Of a DNA stretch of 5,058 nucleotides, positions 68 to 5,058 are shown piece by piece. The number at the start of each line of letters is the position of its first letter. Position 1 is the stretch's first letter. The DNA lies in assembly GCA_028275775.1 (NCBI GenBank), contig JAPWTZ010000026.1, forward strand, positions 1-5,058, read 5' to 3'. The translations under genes and the position numbers were made by a program. Under the pieces are notes generated by a model. The model had not been told where the DNA came from. It ran no database searches and saw nothing but the letters and a program-made list of their open reading frames with translations. Origin of the DNA: Candidatus Nanopusillus sp. (GTDB lineage Archaea; Nanobdellota; Nanobdellia; Nanobdellales; Nanobdellaceae).

Positions 68-508
68 TTAGATCTTAAAAAAAGGCTCTAATCTAGGTAC
101 TATATAATCAATAAATGCATTTTCTATTTGTTTATCTGTCCAAACAATACCAAAATATTCAAATTTATCATCATCTCCTCCCAATAATTTATTATATATT
201 GCTTCTGTAAAATCTCTATGATTTTCTAATAAATATTTTGCATATCCTGGGTCTATATTATTCATCTTTTTAATAATATAATATGCAATTAAGTGTGCCA
301 TAATATTTATATAAAATTCTTTATTTTCTTTCATATCTTTTTTATGTATTTTTTTATCTACATTTGTTATTAATTCTTTTAGCGATGCTATAATTTTGCC
401 ATTGTATGCAATTCTATAATTTGATAATTCTTTACCATTAAATTCTATTACCTCGGGTATACTATAACCTAAAAATGTTAATTCATCAAATAGGGTTGTT
501 TCATCCAT
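68..508 (-). CDS. Hypothetical protein, 146 aa, last gene of the operon. No recognisable motif.
   Basis: ATG at 508..506 and TAA at 70..68. A 441-nt open frame is notable in DNA where stop triplets are very frequent. It is co-directional with the upstream ATPase gene and 26 nt downstream of it. Its K/E/I/Y-rich composition matches its neighbours. Confidence 0.8.
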   Translation of the reverse strand: MDETTLFDELTFLGYSIPEVIEFNGKELSNYRIAYNGKIIASLKELITNVDKKIHKKDMKENKEFYINIMAHLIAYYIIKKMNNIDPGYAKYLLENHRDFTEAIYNKLLGGDDDKFEYFGIVWTDKQIENAFIDYIVPRLEPFFKI

Positions 509-534: not shown

Positions 535-2070
535 TTATGGCCATTTCCATGTACCATTCACTATATTAACCGCTAATTCCTCAGCATTCTCATTTAGATA
601 TTTATCTAATTCTAAAGCTTTAATTTTGATTGCTAATTTAATAGCATTATCTTCCATTCTAGCATCCTTAAATTGCCCCATTTGCTTTATTTTTTGTTCA
701 TCAATATATTTATTATAGTTATTTGCTATCCTATTTATTTCATTTTGTATAATCCTCACTAATTCATGCATTGCTAAGGGATTTAATAATCTATCGCTTT
801 TAATTCTATTTATATTAAATCTTTCCGTAACTACACTTACTATTGCCATCCTACTAATTAAAGAATCTATTGTGTCCCTATATTTTTTATTGCTTTTTGC
901 TTTTTCCTTTAATAAAAATCTCCCAGCATCGCGTGCATTTTCTATTTTCTTTATTTCTAATGTTTCCGCATATTCATTAAATGTTTGCTCACTTTCACTT
1001 TCATCCCCAATATTTCCTAATAATATTATACCACGTGGCAATCTTTTCCCTCTTAATAATGCTTTAATTTTTTCCGTGTCCCCTCTCTCAGCTGACCATC
1101 TACCAGAATCAATTCCCTCATTTGCTCTCTCGGCAAATTCGATAAAAGCCTGGGTGTCTGACTTATCTATTTCATCTATAACAATATATTCACTATAAAA
1201 TATTTCACCTGGTGTATTCTTTTCCGCATTGTATACTAATCTCGCACGTGATGGAATTCCTGATATATAACCAATTCTTAAATAACCTTGTAATGATGTG
1301 TAAAATTTTGTTTTTCCGGTTGATGGTGGCGTTAATTGCAACATATGTGTATATGGGTTAAATAAGCTGTCTGCAGTTGGTAAATTTACATTAAATAAAC
1401 TTAACACACGTGGTATATATAACTTATCTATTATTTCTTTATCTCTTTCATTTAGATCAAATATATTATATCCCATAGCACTCAATAGGTATTCATACCA
1501 TGTTAACCCATATTGATCTTTATATTTTCTTATTTTATCTCCATATTTGCTAATTTTTGCTAAATCCTCATAGTCTTTAATATATATTTCCTTAGATTCA
1601 TCATTTTGCTTTAATCTGAGCCATAATTTAATAAATTTGGCTTTGCTAAAGAATTCCATTATCTGGGTAATATCTTTATCCTTATCTTTTTCTATTTCAT
1701 CTTTGTCATAAATAACTTCCATTCCGTTTTCTAATTTAACAATAAATTCATTCTTATCTTTTGCTTTAACCCCTAATATTGCACCTATATAAATCCCTTC
1801 TCTATGCGTATATATCTTTTCTAATAAAATTTCTTTTTTGGCTGGCATGCTTAATATTATATCTTTATAGAATTTTTGGTAAATTTCTTTATCATAGAGT
1901 ATAAATTCATCAATTTCTTTCATATTTTCATCATTATTTTCTATATTAATCCCACTTATCTTTCTATTTGCAAATATATCCGTTTCAAATATTTTTTTCT
2001 TATCTTTTTTATTTTCAATATATTCATATATTGCTCCGGGTTTTTCTGATCCTGGGAGTTCTGGGTCCAT
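535..2070 (-). CDS. AAA+ ATPase, 511 aa. It has an N-terminal ~230-aa domain of unknown function and a C-terminal AAA+ core plus helical lid. It is possibly related to the BrxL/Lon-like ATPase module but has no protease domain.
   Basis: ATG at 2070..2068 and TAA at 537..535. Walker A is TPPSTGKT (aa 247-254, nt 1309..1332; checked by hand translation). Walker B is YIVIDEID (aa 295-302, nt 1165..1188). Sensor-1 is LLGN (N353). A box VII-like LISRM (R407) and a sensor-2-like KDAR (R471) precede a lid helix. A 1.5-kb ORF in AT-rich DNA is essentially certain to be coding. Confidence 0.93.
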   Translation of the reverse strand: MDPELPGSEKPGAIYEYIENKKDKKKIFETDIFANRKISGINIENNDENMKEIDEFILYDKEIYQKFYKDIILSMPAKKEILLEKIYTHREGIYIGAILGVKAKDKNEFIVKLENGMEVIYDKDEIEKDKDKDITQIMEFFSKAKFIKLWLRLKQNDESKEIYIKDYEDLAKISKYGDKIRKYKDQYGLTWYEYLLSAMGYNIFDLNERDKEIIDKLYIPRVLSLFNVNLPTADSLFNPYTHMLQLTPPSTGKTKFYTSLQGYLRIGYISGIPSRARLVYNAEKNTPGEIFYSEYIVIDEIDKSDTQAFIEFAERANEGIDSGRWSAERGDTEKIKALLRGKRLPRGIILLGNIGDESESEQTFNEYAETLEIKKIENARDAGRFLLKEKAKSNKKYRDTIDSLISRMAIVSVVTERFNINRIKSDRLLNPLAMHELVRIIQNEINRIANNYNKYIDEQKIKQMGQFKDARMEDNAIKLAIKIKALELDKYLNENAEELAVNIVNGTWKWP

Positions 2071-2075
2071 TTTAT

Positions 2076-2981
2076 TTAATTTTCTCTATTTGATCTTAGC
2101 CTTTCCCATTCTTTTCTTAATTCTTTTATTTTATTTTCAATTTCTTCTAATTGTTTTTTTATTTCTTTTTCCCTTTCTTTTAATTCTTTAACTTCGGGAT
2201 CATTTTCCAATTCTCCAGGTTCGGTTTCCAAAGCTTTTTTTGTTTCTATTTTATCTTCTATAATATCTAAATCGGATTCTAGTTTTCTTTTTTTCTCATA
2301 AAGATCTCTTAATTGTATTGGTATCTTTATTAAGCCTAATATACTTATATCCATCTTTAAATCTACCCTTTCGGGTGATTCTATAATACTTTTTAGTCTA
2401 TAAACTATTTCATTGACTTTTTTAGATTGATCTGGGTTTAATTCCCTTAAGATTTCATACGCTTTTAGTAATACTTTAAATAATATATCTATATCCTCTT
2501 TCCCTTTTATTTTTAATATATCTATAAGATCTTCAAAACCTGCTAAATAAATATGAAGTCTTATAAAAATTATAGGTCTTTCTTTTTGTATTATTTTTCT
2601 TATTTCTTTATTTAGGAATGTATTATTTTCCAATTGTTGTAGTATTATTTTTGTTATAATTAATTCTTTAATTATATTTAGATTTTGTTCGGGTATTTCC
2701 TCAGGTATCTTTGGGTCACTATCTATTATATTAAATATTCTTTCAATGCGCTTTTTCCCATAAAAGTTTAATTTTTGCATGCTAATTATTTCATGTAAGT
2801 ATTCTTTATTTAATTCATAATCCTCGCCTAATATGATTTTTTCAAATAATTCTTTATTTGGAATAAAAACAATTATGTCCTTATTTCTACTTGCACCCTC
2901 TCCTACTACTATTATATAACTCGCTAATAATGCTTTAACCCTTAAATTACTTAAATTTTGTTTTGTTTTTGTTATGCTCAT
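2076..2981 (-). CDS. Hypothetical protein, 301 aa, with a C-terminal ~80-aa E/K-rich coiled-coil tail.
   Basis: ATG at 2981..2979 overlaps the TGA of the upstream gene (ATGA, 2978..2981). TAA is at 2078..2076. The C-terminus RDLYEKKRKLESDLDIIEDKIETKK...KELKEREKEIKKQLEEIENKIKELRKEWERLR has heptad-like spacing of I/L among charged residues. Confidence 0.88.
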   Translation of the reverse strand: MSITKTKQNLSNLRVKALLASYIIVVGEGASRNKDIIVFIPNKELFEKIILGEDYELNKEYLHEIISMQKLNFYGKKRIERIFNIIDSDPKIPEEIPEQNLNIIKELIITKIILQQLENNTFLNKEIRKIIQKERPIIFIRLHIYLAGFEDLIDILKIKGKEDIDILFKVLLKAYEILRELNPDQSKKVNEIVYRLKSIIESPERVDLKMDISILGLIKIPIQLRDLYEKKRKLESDLDIIEDKIETKKALETEPGELENDPEVKELKEREKEIKKQLEEIENKIKELRKEWERLRSNREN

Positions 2982-3601
2982 CTTTTTATTGCTTTAACCT
3001 CTATTTTTTGCCTTATTTTATCTACTATATTAGAAAATAATGAAAGATCCTTTTCTGTGTATGGATCAATAATATTAATATGTGTTATCTCTAAATATTC
3101 ATCTTTTGCTAATTCTCCGTGTACTAATTCTTTATATATTGTATAATAGTAATTTCCTAAACTTTCGGGATCGCTATATACAACGTATCCGTTTTTATAT
3201 AATTCCGTTATTATGTAATTTCCATATACAATTGATTTTATTATCTTATATGTTTCATAATAATATTCGCATTCTTTATCTACTTTTAGATAACCTAATA
3301 TTGGTCCAATTCTACTATTTACAACTCTACCGATTGAATTTATTGTTTCCAATGTTTGATAAACTACTAATCCATCTTTCCTATATTCTCGTATCTGTAC
3401 ATCATTGGGTGTCTTTTTTCCATCTTTTTCCTTAATATATGTTATAAAAACCTTAGCATCCTGGGTTTCTTCACCCTTTTTTGCTCTAATTAATGTTAAT
3501 TCTTTTGTTTCAGGTTCCTTTTGTTTTGTTTCTTTTTTATTATCTTCAATTTCCTCTAAATAAATTTCATCTCCGTGTTGAATTATTTTATAGTCTACCA
3601 T
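2978..3601 (-). CDS. Hypothetical protein, 207 aa. It has a short N-terminal segment, a K/E/T-rich linker and a Tyr-rich, probably beta-rich C-terminal domain.
   Basis: ATG at 3601..3599 lies 4 nt after the TAA of the upstream gene. The TGA at 2980..2978 overlaps the next ATG. There is a weak AGGA about 9-12 nt upstream of the ATG. Confidence 0.85.
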   Translation of the reverse strand: MVDYKIIQHGDEIYLEEIEDNKKETKQKEPETKELTLIRAKKGEETQDAKVFITYIKEKDGKKTPNDVQIREYRKDGLVVYQTLETINSIGRVVNSRIGPILGYLKVDKECEYYYETYKIIKSIVYGNYIITELYKNGYVVYSDPESLGNYYYTIYKELVHGELAKDEYLEITHINIIDPYTEKDLSLFSNIVDKIRQKIEVKAIKR

Positions 3602-3605
3602 GGTT

Positions 3606-4301
3606 TTATCCTTTTATTGTTTCTACTTTTTGGGCCTCTACAAATCTCTTAGCTAAATCTAAAATAAATTTTACCTCTTTTATTATACCATCATTTATTT
3701 TATCGATTTCTTTATCCATCTCGGTTATCTTAAAATAGGTTTCTTGATCAAAGATCCCTTTTAAATCATTTCTATATAGGTAATAGTAAAATTCTTTATA
3801 ATCAAAAGACTTTATTGTTATTGGGCATGTTTGTATATTCTTATATATAATATATCCGAGAGCCAATGATTCTACTATCTTTTTAAATTCTTTATAATCA
3901 AATAGCCATTCTTTGAGGTTTTTTAATGTCTTTTGTATTCTATAAATAGTTAATATTTCTTTTCTTACAATATGTGTTAATGTTATTGGAATTGTTTTAC
4001 AATCTACTAATTCATAAATACCAGGTTCATTTTCTACAATAAATCCGACATATTCACTTTTTCCATAATCATAATAATCTAAATAGAAAGTAATCCCTAT
4101 TAATGCGTTTTTACTTTTCTTTTTACCAATAATAGAGCCCCATGTTGTAATTCCTTCTCCGAATTTTATGAATCCTTTATCTTTAATAACTCCTAATTTA
4201 TCTATATAATAATTTCCATCCCATTCTTTTATTGGTACTAATTTAAATGGTCCAAAATCCGAAATTCCATTCCCTATATATTTTAATATGTATTTTTCCA
4301 T
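3606..4301 (-). CDS. Hypothetical protein, 231 aa from the ATG at 4301 (235 aa if the TTG at 4313 is used). Possible PD-(D/E)xK (RecB/Cas4/Hjc-like) nuclease fold, supported at motif level only.
   Basis: The ORF-track start at 4313 is a TTG that overlaps the upstream gene by 11 nt. The ATG at 4301..4299 sits 1 nt after the upstream TAA (TAAAATG) and is the more likely start. TAA is at 3608..3606. The motif GFIVENEPGIYELVDCKT (nt 3993..4046) is followed by IYRIQ (YRIQ = nt 3933..3944). Confidence 0.85.
   Translation of the reverse strand: MEKYILKYIGNGISDFGPFKLVPIKEWDGNYYIDKLGVIKDKGFIKFGEGITTWGSIIGKKKSKNALIGITFYLDYYDYGKSEYVGFIVENEPGIYELVDCKTIPITLTHIVRKEILTIYRIQKTLKNLKEWLFDYKEFKKIVESLALGYIIYKNIQTCPITIKSFDYKEFYYYLYRNDLKGIFDQETYFKITEMDKEIDKINDGIIKEVKFILDLAKRFVEAQKVETIKG
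3789..3806. repeat. Copy 1 of an 18-bp perfect direct repeat AAATTCTTTATAATCAAA (plus strand). The second copy is at 3885..3902.
   Basis: Exact 18/18 identity read directly from the sequence. The copies are 96 nt apart (32 codons, in frame) inside the 231/235-aa CDS, and both encode FDYKEF. Confidence 0.9.
3885..3902. repeat. Copy 2 of the 18-bp perfect direct repeat AAATTCTTTATAATCAAA.
   Basis: Identical to 3789..3806. Encodes FDYKEF (aa 138-143 in the 235-aa numbering). Confidence 0.9.
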
Positions 4302-4302
4302 T

Positions 4303-4539
4303 TTATTTAACAATCTCTATCATTTCATTTTTTGCCTTTTTATTTAACAAATACTCTATAAATTTCTGTTTTGCTATTTCATTATTTGCTATCCATTCTA
4401 ATGCTTTTCCATACAATTCCACCTTTTTTAGTCCCGTTATTAACTTTAGTTCTGTGAATACCGCCTCTATTTTGGCTAATTCTTCTCTCTCTCCTAAAAA
4501 AGTTATTACTAACCTAGATGGATCCGATATGGATGCCAT
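4303..4539 (-). CDS. Small protein, 78 aa, first gene of the operon. Probable ribbon-helix-helix (CopG/Arc/MetJ-like) DNA-binding regulator.
   Basis: ATG at 4539..4537 and TAA at 4305..4303. The predicted layout is beta-strand RLVITFL, helix EREELAKIEAVFTELK, turn ITGLKK and helix VELYGKALEWIANN. This matches the RHH beta-alpha-turn-alpha pattern and aligns by eye with CopG (KRLTITLSESVLENLEKMAREMGLSKSAMISVALENY). Its position as the promoter-proximal small gene is typical of autoregulators. Confidence 0.7.
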   Translation of the reverse strand: MASISDPSRLVITFLGEREELAKIEAVFTELKLITGLKKVELYGKALEWIANNEIAKQKFIEYLLNKKAKNEMIEIVK

Positions 4540-4559
4540 AGTATTACTATTATTTTTCC

Positions 4560-4577
4560 TATTTAAAAATCTTTCGG
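4560..4577 (-). promoter_or_regulatory. Candidate archaeal-type BRE/TATA element for the operon (minus strand CCGAAAGA-TTTTTAAATA).
   Basis: The TATA-like decamer TTTTTAAATA occupies 4569..4560. Its centre lies about 26 nt upstream of the A of the ATG at 4539, which implies a leaderless transcript. A purine-rich stretch lies immediately upstream. No Shine-Dalgarno sequence lies at a usable distance from the ATG. TATA-like strings are frequent in AT-rich DNA. Confidence 0.4.
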
Positions 4578-4626
4578 TATTACATTTTTATAGAAAATAC
4601 TTTATTAAGGTTGTAAAAGACCCATA

Positions 4627-4642
4627 TATATGGTACCATATA
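4627..4642. promoter_or_regulatory. Perfect 16-bp palindrome TATATGGTACCATATA. Candidate operator, for example for the RHH protein.
   Basis: Perfect dyad symmetry was verified base by base, centred between 4634 and 4635. The G/C-containing core GGTACC makes it less likely to be an AT-repeat artefact. It lies 88-103 nt upstream of the operon ATG. Confidence 0.35.
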
Positions 4643-4980
4643 CCTTTTTGTAAGATATTATATTATACCCGTTATAATTGTGTATATTAAAACCTTTTTT
4701 ATGGTCTTTATAAATAATTTATAAATTTATATGCCATCTAAATTTAAAAGTTTAAACAGGATTTAAATCAAACTAAATATTATTTTTCTAAAAAGTACTA
4801 ATTTGCTTAATTTATTATAAAATTAGATTACTATGAACTATAATACTATATTATGATAAGTATATTAGGCTTTATATAGTATAAATTTATAAATTTTAAA
4901 ATAAATTATTATATAAAGAGAATTAAATAAAGATAGCTCTATGGTGGCCCGTATTCTTTTTGTTTTTGCATGTCTTAAAA

Positions 4981-4998
4981 AGGAATGGTTTTTAAATC
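4981..4998 (+). promoter_or_regulatory. Candidate BRE/TATA element for the divergent plus-strand gene (AGGAATGG-TTTTTAAATC).
   Basis: The same TTTTTAAAT core as the operon promoter, at 4989..4997. Its centre lies about 26 nt upstream of the ATG at 5020, again implying a leaderless mRNA. Confidence 0.3.
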
Positions 4999-5019
4999 CC
5001 AAAAGAAATTAATATATAA

Positions 5020-5058
5020 ATGAAAACTAAATTAAAAAAGGAATTATTCGAAAAAGAT
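5020..5058 (+). CDS. Possible 5' end of a divergently transcribed gene (MKTKLKKELFEKD...), truncated by the window edge.
   Basis: ATG at 5020 followed by 12 open codons to the window end. The K/E-rich composition resembles the other proteins, and a matching TATA-like box sits at the same spacing as for the operon. Far too short to be sure. Confidence 0.3.
   Translation, partial: MKTKLKKELFEKD

Follow-up and report, generated by a model that had tools for sequence, protein, structure and literature searches.

BrxL, an ATPase of the bacteriophage exclusion (BREX) defence systems, combines a helix-turn-helix-like region, an oligonucleotide/oligosaccharide-binding (OB) fold, an MCM-type AAA+ module and an inactive Lon protease domain (PMC12839542). 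Its AAA+ module ends at about residue 469 and is followed by a linker and the Lon-like C-terminal domain; the N-terminal domain and the AAA+ module alone build a hexameric or heptameric ring and make all DNA contacts, while the Lon-like domain serves solely to link two rings tail to tail and possibly to regulate the ATPase (PMC10164562). The absence of a Lon domain is not in itself unusual, because a Lon-less BrxL is already known from type-4 BREX (PMC12839542). In rudiviruses, a core cassette that has been linked to recombination or genome maturation consists of gp17, which binds single-stranded DNA (ssDNA), gp18, an ssDNA-annealing ATPase, and gp19, a Cas4-like ssDNA nuclease (PMC5062984; bioRxiv 10.1101/2020.01.16.907410); ssDNA annealing by gp18 of the virus SIRV2 goes back to Guo et al. 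2015, as cited in PMC5062984. Here we describe a 511-amino-acid (aa) ATPase, homologous to both BrxL and gp18, that is encoded in a 5,058-nucleotide (nt) stretch of contig JAPWTZ010000026.1 (hereafter the window, meaning this whole stretch). On sequence grounds we place it in a Lon-less branch of the PF13337 family whose native carriers are archaeal viruses and integrative elements and which is a conserved core gene there, since its closest named family is gp18 of rudiviruses and lipothrixviruses and since its relatives lack the length of BrxL. With a probability of roughly 60%, we suggest that it forms an AAA+ ring of the BrxL/MCM type, the product of a core gene of its element, which acts on DNA in the replication or recombination of that element.

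Homology to BrxL and domain anatomy

The initial annotation had read the gene as a BrxL-like ATPase that lacks a Lon domain and BREX partners, pointing to a series of short patches in the order known from BrxL. All of these patches are present in the translation, namely TWYEYLLSAMGYNIFDL (aa 190-206), IPRVLSLFNVN (aa 219-229), QLTPPSTGKT (aa 245-254), ISGIPSRARLVYN (aa 269-281), YIVIDE (aa 295-300), GIDSGRWSAERG (aa 319-330) and IILLGNI (aa 348-354), and the homology was borne out by profile searches. PF13337 (BrxL_ATPase) was matched at E 1.5e-10 with 40.8 bits against a gathering score of 25 (aa 182-372 on profile positions 21-185 of 313), TIGR02688 at E 7e-9 and the BrxL family of PADLOC at E 1.7e-8. 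The protein is not a full-length equivalog of BrxL, scoring 34.8 bits against the TIGR02688 cut-off of 329.3. A profile of 53 diverse family members found the BrxL structures 8EMC and 8EMH as its sole matches in the PDB (E 8e-13), and neither the single sequence nor a profile of close homologues gave any match there, so that BrxL was reached only with the diversified profile. The same patches are paired in this alignment: TPPxTGKT with GPRGTGKS, LiyDA..G with LFYNMSSRRIG, DEfDK with FDEVAG, GvWtR with GSFARG, and ffGN with FVGN. Among the 53 aligned members, 45 pass the PF13337 threshold and none has a Lon domain.

Structure prediction agrees with the profile searches. An AlphaFold2 (AF2) model based on the 53-member alignment reached a predicted local distance difference test score (pLDDT) of 87.8 and a predicted TM-score (pTM) of 0.87. 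When it was compared with the PDB by Foldseek, 24 BrxL chains ranked first (E 5.6e-14 to 2e-10, TMq 0.48-0.56, ~530 aligned columns over the N-terminal domain and the AAA+ module together) and MCM followed as the second structural class (E 4e-10 or weaker, TMq 0.34-0.46); no Lon entry was found among the 50 matches listed, all of which were BrxL and MCM. A best match to Orc1/Cdc6, SF3 helicases or DUF815 had been named beforehand as an outcome that would speak against BrxL, and none of these took the place of BrxL and MCM. A first AF2 run with a shallow alignment of close homologues reached a pLDDT of only 57 and left the AAA+ core unfolded, and we use it solely as a rough probe of the N-terminal domain. 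With little more than the barrel and the lid folded, this poor model again matched BrxL first, followed by OB folds (RPA32/14, the N-domains of LysRS and AspRS, and Stn1), all of them weakly (E ~1e-3 to 1e-2), in agreement with the domain layout published for BrxL (PMC12839542).

The gene and the parts of its product are as follows, all on the minus strand of the window:

535-2070 (-): gene for the BrxL/MCM-like AAA+ ATPase, 511 aa without cysteines (open reading frame, PF13337, PHROG 6542, AF2 and Foldseek)
1804-2070 (-): N-terminal region, aa 1-89, partly of low confidence or disordered, ending in two long helices, H61-74 and H76-89 (AF2 model)
1561-1803 (-): OB-like beta-barrel and then a beta-hairpin, aa 90-170 (model, pLDDT >90)
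826-1560 (-): AAA+ alpha/beta core, about aa 171-415 (PF13337 at aa 182-372, PDB profile alignment to BrxL residues 182-327, and model)
1309-1332 (-): Walker A, TPPSTGKT, aa 247-254 (aligned to BrxL GPRGTGKS)
1171-1188 (-): Walker B, YIVIDE, aa 295-300, with D299 and E300 intact (aligned to BrxL VVAFDE)
1012-1014 (-): sensor-1 asparagine, N353 (53/53 members)
850-852 (-): putative arginine finger, R407, in the motif LISRMAIV (52/53 members)
535-825 (-): all-helical AAA+ lid, aa 416-511, and the stop codon (model, pLDDT 89-98)

The N-terminus, MDPELxGSExPGAI, is kept across close homologues. The strands of the barrel region (E91-96, 98-105, 108-113, 118-122, 147-155 and 160-169) occupy the position of the DNA-contacting OB domain in BrxL and MCM. 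Conservation was counted over the 53 diverse relatives, which are 17-65% identical to the window protein. In Walker A, K253 is present in all 53 members and G252 in 49, and position 254 is a threonine or serine; in Walker B, D299 is kept in 51 members and E300 in 43. A three-helix insertion of ~50 residues (aa 355-406), which includes the conserved R380 (48/53), separates sensor-1 from R407. The latter lies in a [DE/S]R-h-A-I motif immediately before strand beta-5, and we take it to be the arginine finger by its position and by analogy with the DRME motif of Lon and the SRF motif of MCM. The lid consists of helices H431-450, 458-465, 470-485, 488-492 and 496-505, and R471, at the start of one of them and present in 50 out of the 53 members, is likely the sensor-2 arginine. 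The catalytic set is intact, and its conservation over the 53 members speaks for an active enzyme. In BrxL, the Walker-B mutation E280Q abolishes function, and it is the only mutation that does so (PMC10164562).

We also note that a sister subclade (P0029, P0031-P0034, P0036, P0037 and, from a metagenome-assembled genome (MAG) of Nanopusillus, L012 and L013) has DAFDK or DSFDK in place of the Walker-B motif DEFDK; Walker A and sensor-1 are kept in this subclade, and the arginine finger in nearly all of its members. Family-wide, the Walker-B glutamate is replaced in 10 out of the 53 members, and such variants may bind ATP yet hydrolyse it poorly.

About 155 residues had been estimated to follow sensor-1, and we count 158 after N353. 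Because these residues hold R407, strand beta-5 and the lid with R471, they are the remainder of the AAA+ module and leave no replacement domain. The protein stops with the lid, at the point equivalent to the end of the AAA+ module in BrxL, and no match to Lon_C or any other C-terminal family was found in Pfam at E up to 1, in agreement with the initial annotation. Compared with type-1 BrxL, the window protein shares a PF13337 domain with the same motif order and the layout of an N-terminal domain with an OB fold ahead of an MCM-like AAA+ module (PMC12839542, PMC10164562), but it has neither a Lon-like nor an HKD C-terminal domain, lacks the BREX gene context, carries the insertion between sensor-1 and the arginine finger, and is only ~12-13% identical in structural alignments. 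The type-4 BrxL, by its description, likewise consists of DNA-binding domains at the N-terminus plus an MCM-type AAA+ module with nothing after it (PMC12839542), whereas its defining neighbourhood of PglZ, BrxC and PAPS reductase/DUF4007 genes is not present at the window locus. With archaeal and eukaryotic MCM the protein shares an OB domain at the N-terminus, followed by the AAA+ module, but this likeness is structural only: there is no match to the Pfam MCM family at E up to 1, the window protein is shorter, and the MCM-type zinc finger is absent, since the protein is free of cysteines. Many plasmids and proviruses of archaea carry an MCM of their own.

Viral relatives and the circular element

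The closest named relatives of the window protein are viral. PHROG 6542 was matched at E 2.9e-20 nearly end to end (aa 90-501 on profile positions 65-422 of 435), and BLASTP against SIRV2 gp18 (ORF436), whose gene is located between those of gp17 and gp19, gave 25% identity at E 6e-18 (aa 94-505). A tblastn search of the phage collection returned 46 records, all from viruses of Sulfolobales (Rudiviridae and delta-lipothrixviruses), in which the matching proteins are annotated as 'protease', 'ATPase' or 'hypothetical'. Among predicted viral structures in BFVD, a SIRV9 protein (E 3.2e-21, TM 0.56/0.63) and AFV2 ORF425 (E 1.3e-20, TM 0.62/0.73) were found, and the best match was A0A5P9U4U1, a 491-aa viral protein with 30% identity (E 1e-38), which could come from a described virus of Nanoarchaeota. 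The window protein and the gp18 family (SIRV2 gp18, AFV1 ORF426 and AFV2 ORF425) thus match over nearly their full length, share an OB-like N-terminal domain, an AAA+ core and a lid without Lon, catalytic motifs such as DEIxx, GN and DRIxI, and superposable predicted folds, and both belong to the core gene sets of archaeal mobile elements whose settings are hot and low in GC. They differ in that the window protein is ~75 aa longer, mostly at the N-terminus, and in that identity is only ~25%; the carriers differ as well, as a ~12-kb circular integrative element stands against linear rudivirus genomes of 25-35 kb. A 2014 review places these viral ATPases under 'Lon protease' on HHpred grounds (PMC4124505). 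No mention of BrxL was found in the ten best-ranked papers on rudiviruses and archaeal viruses, so that gp18's connection to BrxL/MCM has apparently received little discussion.

A full HMMER search of 1.84 billion representative proteins, with the profile of the family as query, gave only 66 relatives at E <=1e-3, all of 54-558 aa and none of BrxL-like length (~680 aa). The initial annotation had gone on to propose that a BrxL-type motor was recruited into a different system. Its account of the homology and of the missing Lon domain and BREX partners holds, but recruitment is not the best reading of a protein that falls short of the BrxL equivalog, has no relative longer than 558 aa and finds its closest named family in gp18. 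The Lon-less and BREX-less state is instead explained by the protein's place in an already existing PF13337 branch borne by archaeal viruses and other mobile elements. The gene is thus a divergent member of an already recognised family, carried by an undescribed family of small circular elements.

These elements were recognised from close homologues of the ATPase, which were found only in hot-spring metagenomes (58-99% identity) and form 27 homologue clusters (58-94% identity, aligned over the full length). Among the sources are Yellowstone's Obsidian Pool (sample 3300017696, PMC6421429) and a contig with the label CisS, which we take to stand for Cistern Spring. Repeated alignment-based searches returned the same 27 close homologues, and it took the full HMMER scan to reach distant relatives. 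No relatives were found by scanning IMG/VR and genome contigs with the close-family profile, and the phage and plasmid collections gave no close match to the ATPase, the plasmids yielding a single weak one on a plasmid of Abditibacteriota. Gene order is constant in 38 hot-spring metagenome loci; with the ATPase operon read as the forward direction, a gene for 191 aa on the minus strand is followed by those for 78, 235, 207 and 301 aa, the ATPase, and those for 146 and 180 aa; then come the integrase (211 aa, minus strand) and the genes for 393 (a P-loop protein), 326, 171, 140 and 202 aa. The element therefore has ~14 genes, nearly all without recognisable function, of which the window covers ~40%. 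The block formed by the 207-aa, 301-aa, ATPase and 146-aa genes is kept even in L009, a branch with an ATPase of only 41% identity. The integrase belongs to the tyrosine recombinases (PF00589, 35 bits; PHROG 9208, E 4.5e-20), and the 393-aa protein (L002 760-1941) has a Walker A motif and no match in the PDB or the phage collection.

The longest contig of the element is <=12.2 kb. Two loci (L040 and L044) extend from the ATPase across the integrase and reach into the 393-aa gene, while L042, on the same contig as L002, begins at that gene, and the integrase gene of L002 is split over both contig ends. The element is therefore circular, because L040 and L044 cross the junction at which other contigs end and because the L002 integrase gene is divided there. 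In addition, L001 has a terminal near-repeat of 158 nt (148/158 identical). Neither the window nor the complete ~12-kb elements contain BREX genes (PglZ, BrxC, PglX, BrxA, BrxB or PAPS reductase) or other defence genes, the element-wide scan covering the genes of L001 plus two of L002 with PADLOC among the libraries. Since the homologous elements are complete circles, pglX, pglZ and brxC do not lie just outside the window either, and the possibility that the locus is a fragment of a BREX operon is ruled out. In this respect, too, the initial annotation was right.

As to the host, ATPase relatives of 30-31% identity occur on contigs of two Candidatus Nanopusillus MAGs with 25-28% GC, on which no housekeeping genes were recognisable. 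One such contig carries a homologue of the 393-aa ATPase (31% identity; L013 2376-3722 (-)) alongside the BrxL-like ATPase, and another an integrase homologue (34% identity). A further relative lies in a small integrated element, made up of a ribbon-helix-helix (RHH) gene, small genes, the ATPase and an SSV-type integrase gene, adjacent to a gene for a tRNA-intron endonuclease; the assembly is probably archaeal. The whole neighbourhood of the family consists of archaeal mobile elements, and our best guess, on circumstantial grounds, for the host of the present element from terrestrial hot springs is a nanoarchaeon of the Nanopusillus type. The loci thus outline an uncharacterised family of ~12-kb circular elements from Yellowstone-type hot springs, possibly those of Nanoarchaeota, a group with very few known mobile elements.

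Proposed function and alternative explanations

We propose an ATP-driven ring that encircles DNA, since the protein keeps exactly the ring-forming and DNA-contacting parts of BrxL with the active site intact. Subunits would join through contacts of the N-terminal and AAA+ domains into a hexameric or heptameric ring around DNA, and Walker A and B, sensor-1, the arginine finger and sensor-2 would couple ATP turnover to movement on DNA or to its remodelling, be it unwinding, annealing or branch migration. Because pairing of BrxL rings tail to tail is mediated by the Lon-like domain, a protein without it would be expected to form single rings or to pair in another way. The ring would serve replication or recombination of the element, a role suggested by its being a core gene, by its kinship with the rudiviral annealing ATPase and by its MCM-like fold, possibly with the initiator-like 393-aa P-loop ATPase as initiator or loader. 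The Lon-less branch as a whole most likely acts on the element's own DNA.

Several points weigh against this proposal. First, the partners of gp18 in SIRV2, the ssDNA-binding protein gp17 and the Cas4 nuclease gp19, have no significant match among the proteins of the window and the element; the best match to gp19 is the 202-aa protein of L001 (E 0.004), and all other comparisons with gp17 and gp19 gave E >=0.17. With these counterparts absent, the logic of the rudiviral cassette may not carry over. Second, the role as a DNA motor rests on homology, the model and context, and the context does not directly indicate replication, because the five neighbouring proteins are without detectable function. 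Third, helicase and strand-exchange activity could not be demonstrated for BrxL itself (PMC10164562). Fourth, the label 'initiator-like' for the 393-aa protein comes from sub-threshold matches only (a fuselloviral DnaA-like family in PHROG, E 1.6e-5; RuvB_N, E 2e-3). Finally, the assignment of the host relies on how contigs devoid of host marker genes were binned into MAGs.

The 393-aa ATPase could nevertheless be the initiator or loader partner of the BrxL-like ATPase. It would be tempting to go further and regard the two as a self-encoded module of loader plus ring motor, carried by an undescribed family of nanoarchaeotal elements, be they viruses or plasmids, that are circular, integrative and ~12 kb long. 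We consider this extended idea doubtful. If it were true, the MCM-like BrxL and the ORC-like BrxC of BREX would be relatives, possibly descendants, of such replication modules, which would offer a concrete evolutionary and mechanistic model for the action of BrxL on phage DNA.

Another explanation is that the ATPase packages the genome or takes part in virion morphogenesis of an unrecognised small archaeal virus, with a ring that pumps or condenses the 12-kb DNA into particles. The fold is that of a ring-type DNA-binding AAA+ protein, relatives are encoded by filamentous and rod-shaped viruses, and the ATPase is the largest gene of an element whose many proteins without a recognised function could be structural. 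Yet rod-shaped archaeal viruses are not known to fill preformed capsids, and the relative gp18 has been assigned to a cassette for ssDNA binding, annealing and nuclease activity. Moreover, the packaging ATPases that we know of are of the FtsK/HerA or terminase type, none being MCM-like, no capsid protein was recognised, and the IMG/VR scan yielded no relative. We therefore think that a packaging role is unlikely.

Defence has to be weighed as well, in the form of a BrxL-type motor recruited as the ATPase of an element-borne system that is not BREX and that acts in defence or in competition between elements. The protein is homologous to a known defence component, mobile elements often bring defence cargo, and the neighbouring 235-aa gene shows the rapid evolution (26-35% identity) that is seen in specificity or arms-race genes. 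However, the ATPase gene is not cargo, as it is found at the same position in 38 out of 38 loci, and lytic rudiviruses carry its nearest named relatives as core genes. None of the other genes of the window and the rest of the element matched a nuclease, a methyltransferase, PglZ, BrxC or any PADLOC family, and an element of ~14 genes leaves little room for a six-gene defence operon, all of which makes such recruitment quite improbable.

It is highly improbable that the protein is a Lon-like unfoldase or chaperone without a protease domain, acting on proteins instead of DNA, although RefSeq and PHROG call homologues 'protease' and the 2014 review lists them among Lon protease ATPases via HHpred (PMC4124505), given that it has no protease domain, that the 50 structural matches listed are BrxL and MCM without any Lon, that BrxL itself is a DNA-binding ring with an inactive Lon-like domain (PMC10164562), and that an OB-like N-terminal domain is present. 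A Lon protease in the proper sense is ruled out, as there is no protease domain and the structural matches listed are of BrxL and MCM.

The fold known as 'BrxL ATPase' in PF13337 is not confined to BREX, as archaeal viruses and small integrative elements carry its Lon-less branch as a core gene. These minimal forms, with an N-terminal domain and an AAA+ module only and without BREX partners, could serve as simple systems for the action of such rings on DNA, for which ssDNA annealing by SIRV2 gp18 already offers an assay.

Neighbouring genes and further observations

The window has a GC content of 25%. Its six genes form an operon, are tightly packed and are all read from the minus strand; the start of a divergently transcribed gene follows. 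Besides the ATPase gene, its features are:

68-508 (-): gene for 146 aa, directly downstream of the ATPase gene in all loci (synteny)
2076-2981 (-): gene for 301 aa with a C-terminal coiled coil, directly upstream of the ATPase gene in all loci (synteny)
2978-3601 (-): gene for 207 aa, in the same operon as the ATPase (synteny)
3606-4313 (-): gene for 235 aa, in the same operon as the ATPase (synteny)
4303-4539 (-): gene for 78 aa, the first in the operon, possibly an RHH regulator (syntenic, 54-74% identity)
4540-5019 (no strand): divergent intergenic region, AT-rich, ~21% GC, ~480 nt (composition)
5020-5058 (+): first part (MKTKLKKELFEKD...) of the gene transcribed divergently, which encodes 177-191 aa in complete elements (homologous elements)

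The 301-aa gene is syntenic wherever a locus reaches upstream of the ATPase (49-97% identity), including the 41%-identity branch L009, and profile scans of its product with Pfam and TIGRFAM gave weak coiled-coil-type matches alone. A paralogue of the 146-aa protein, 140 aa long, is encoded in the element's other half (L001 2698-3120; 34% identity, E 9e-9); neither protein has a match to a known family in profile libraries including Pfam, TIGRFAM, PADLOC and PHROG, and an HMM (hidden Markov model) of the 146-aa family found no match in the more distant loci. The 207-aa protein is 70% identical in L009 over its C-terminal half. Its C-terminal domain is related to that of the 235-aa protein, the L009 fragment matching both. 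The 235-aa gene is the most variable of the element, with 26-35% identity where other genes are 50-90% identical, and this variability suggests a fast-evolving protein of specificity or host interaction. A strand-helix-helix pattern in the sequence of the 78-aa protein makes it a possible RHH regulator; scans against Pfam, TIGRFAM, PADLOC and PHROG gave no family match in support, and the element of a distant relative opens with a gene of the Pfam family RHH_1.

Promoters presumably sit in the divergent intergenic region. Some 20-28 nt upstream of the start codon (ATG) for the 78-aa protein there is a TTTAAATA box, which may be read, from its sequence, as a TATA box. The same 21%-GC region contains a 16-nt perfect inverted repeat at 4716-4731 and 4880-4895 (AATTTATAAATTTATA and TATAAATTTATAAATT), with arms 148 nt apart, which could be an operator or an origin element, or a product of chance in AT-rich DNA. 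No match to Rfam was found in the window, and scans of the window and the element found no tRNA genes and hence no tRNA-linked attachment site. The product of the divergent gene (~190 aa, L001 3709-4284 (-)) is a distant paralogue of the integrase (L001 10817-11452 (-)), with 26% identity over 140 aa and E 4e-4; to judge from this similarity, the element may carry two tyrosine-recombinase-like genes.

Two of the more distant loci deserve mention. On L008, a contig of 27% GC, a gene for the TATA-binding protein (TBP; 1773-2366) lies directly downstream of an ATPase relative with 32% identity, and it is either a host gene or a TBP encoded by the element. The relative P0041 is found on a 35.6-kb contig of 51% GC (L017, JGI 3300005095) together with genes for Hjc, a glycosyltransferase, a DNA methylase, dNK and a 1709-aa protein, and this contig looks like an uncharacterised archaeal virus, possibly a filamentous or rod-shaped one.

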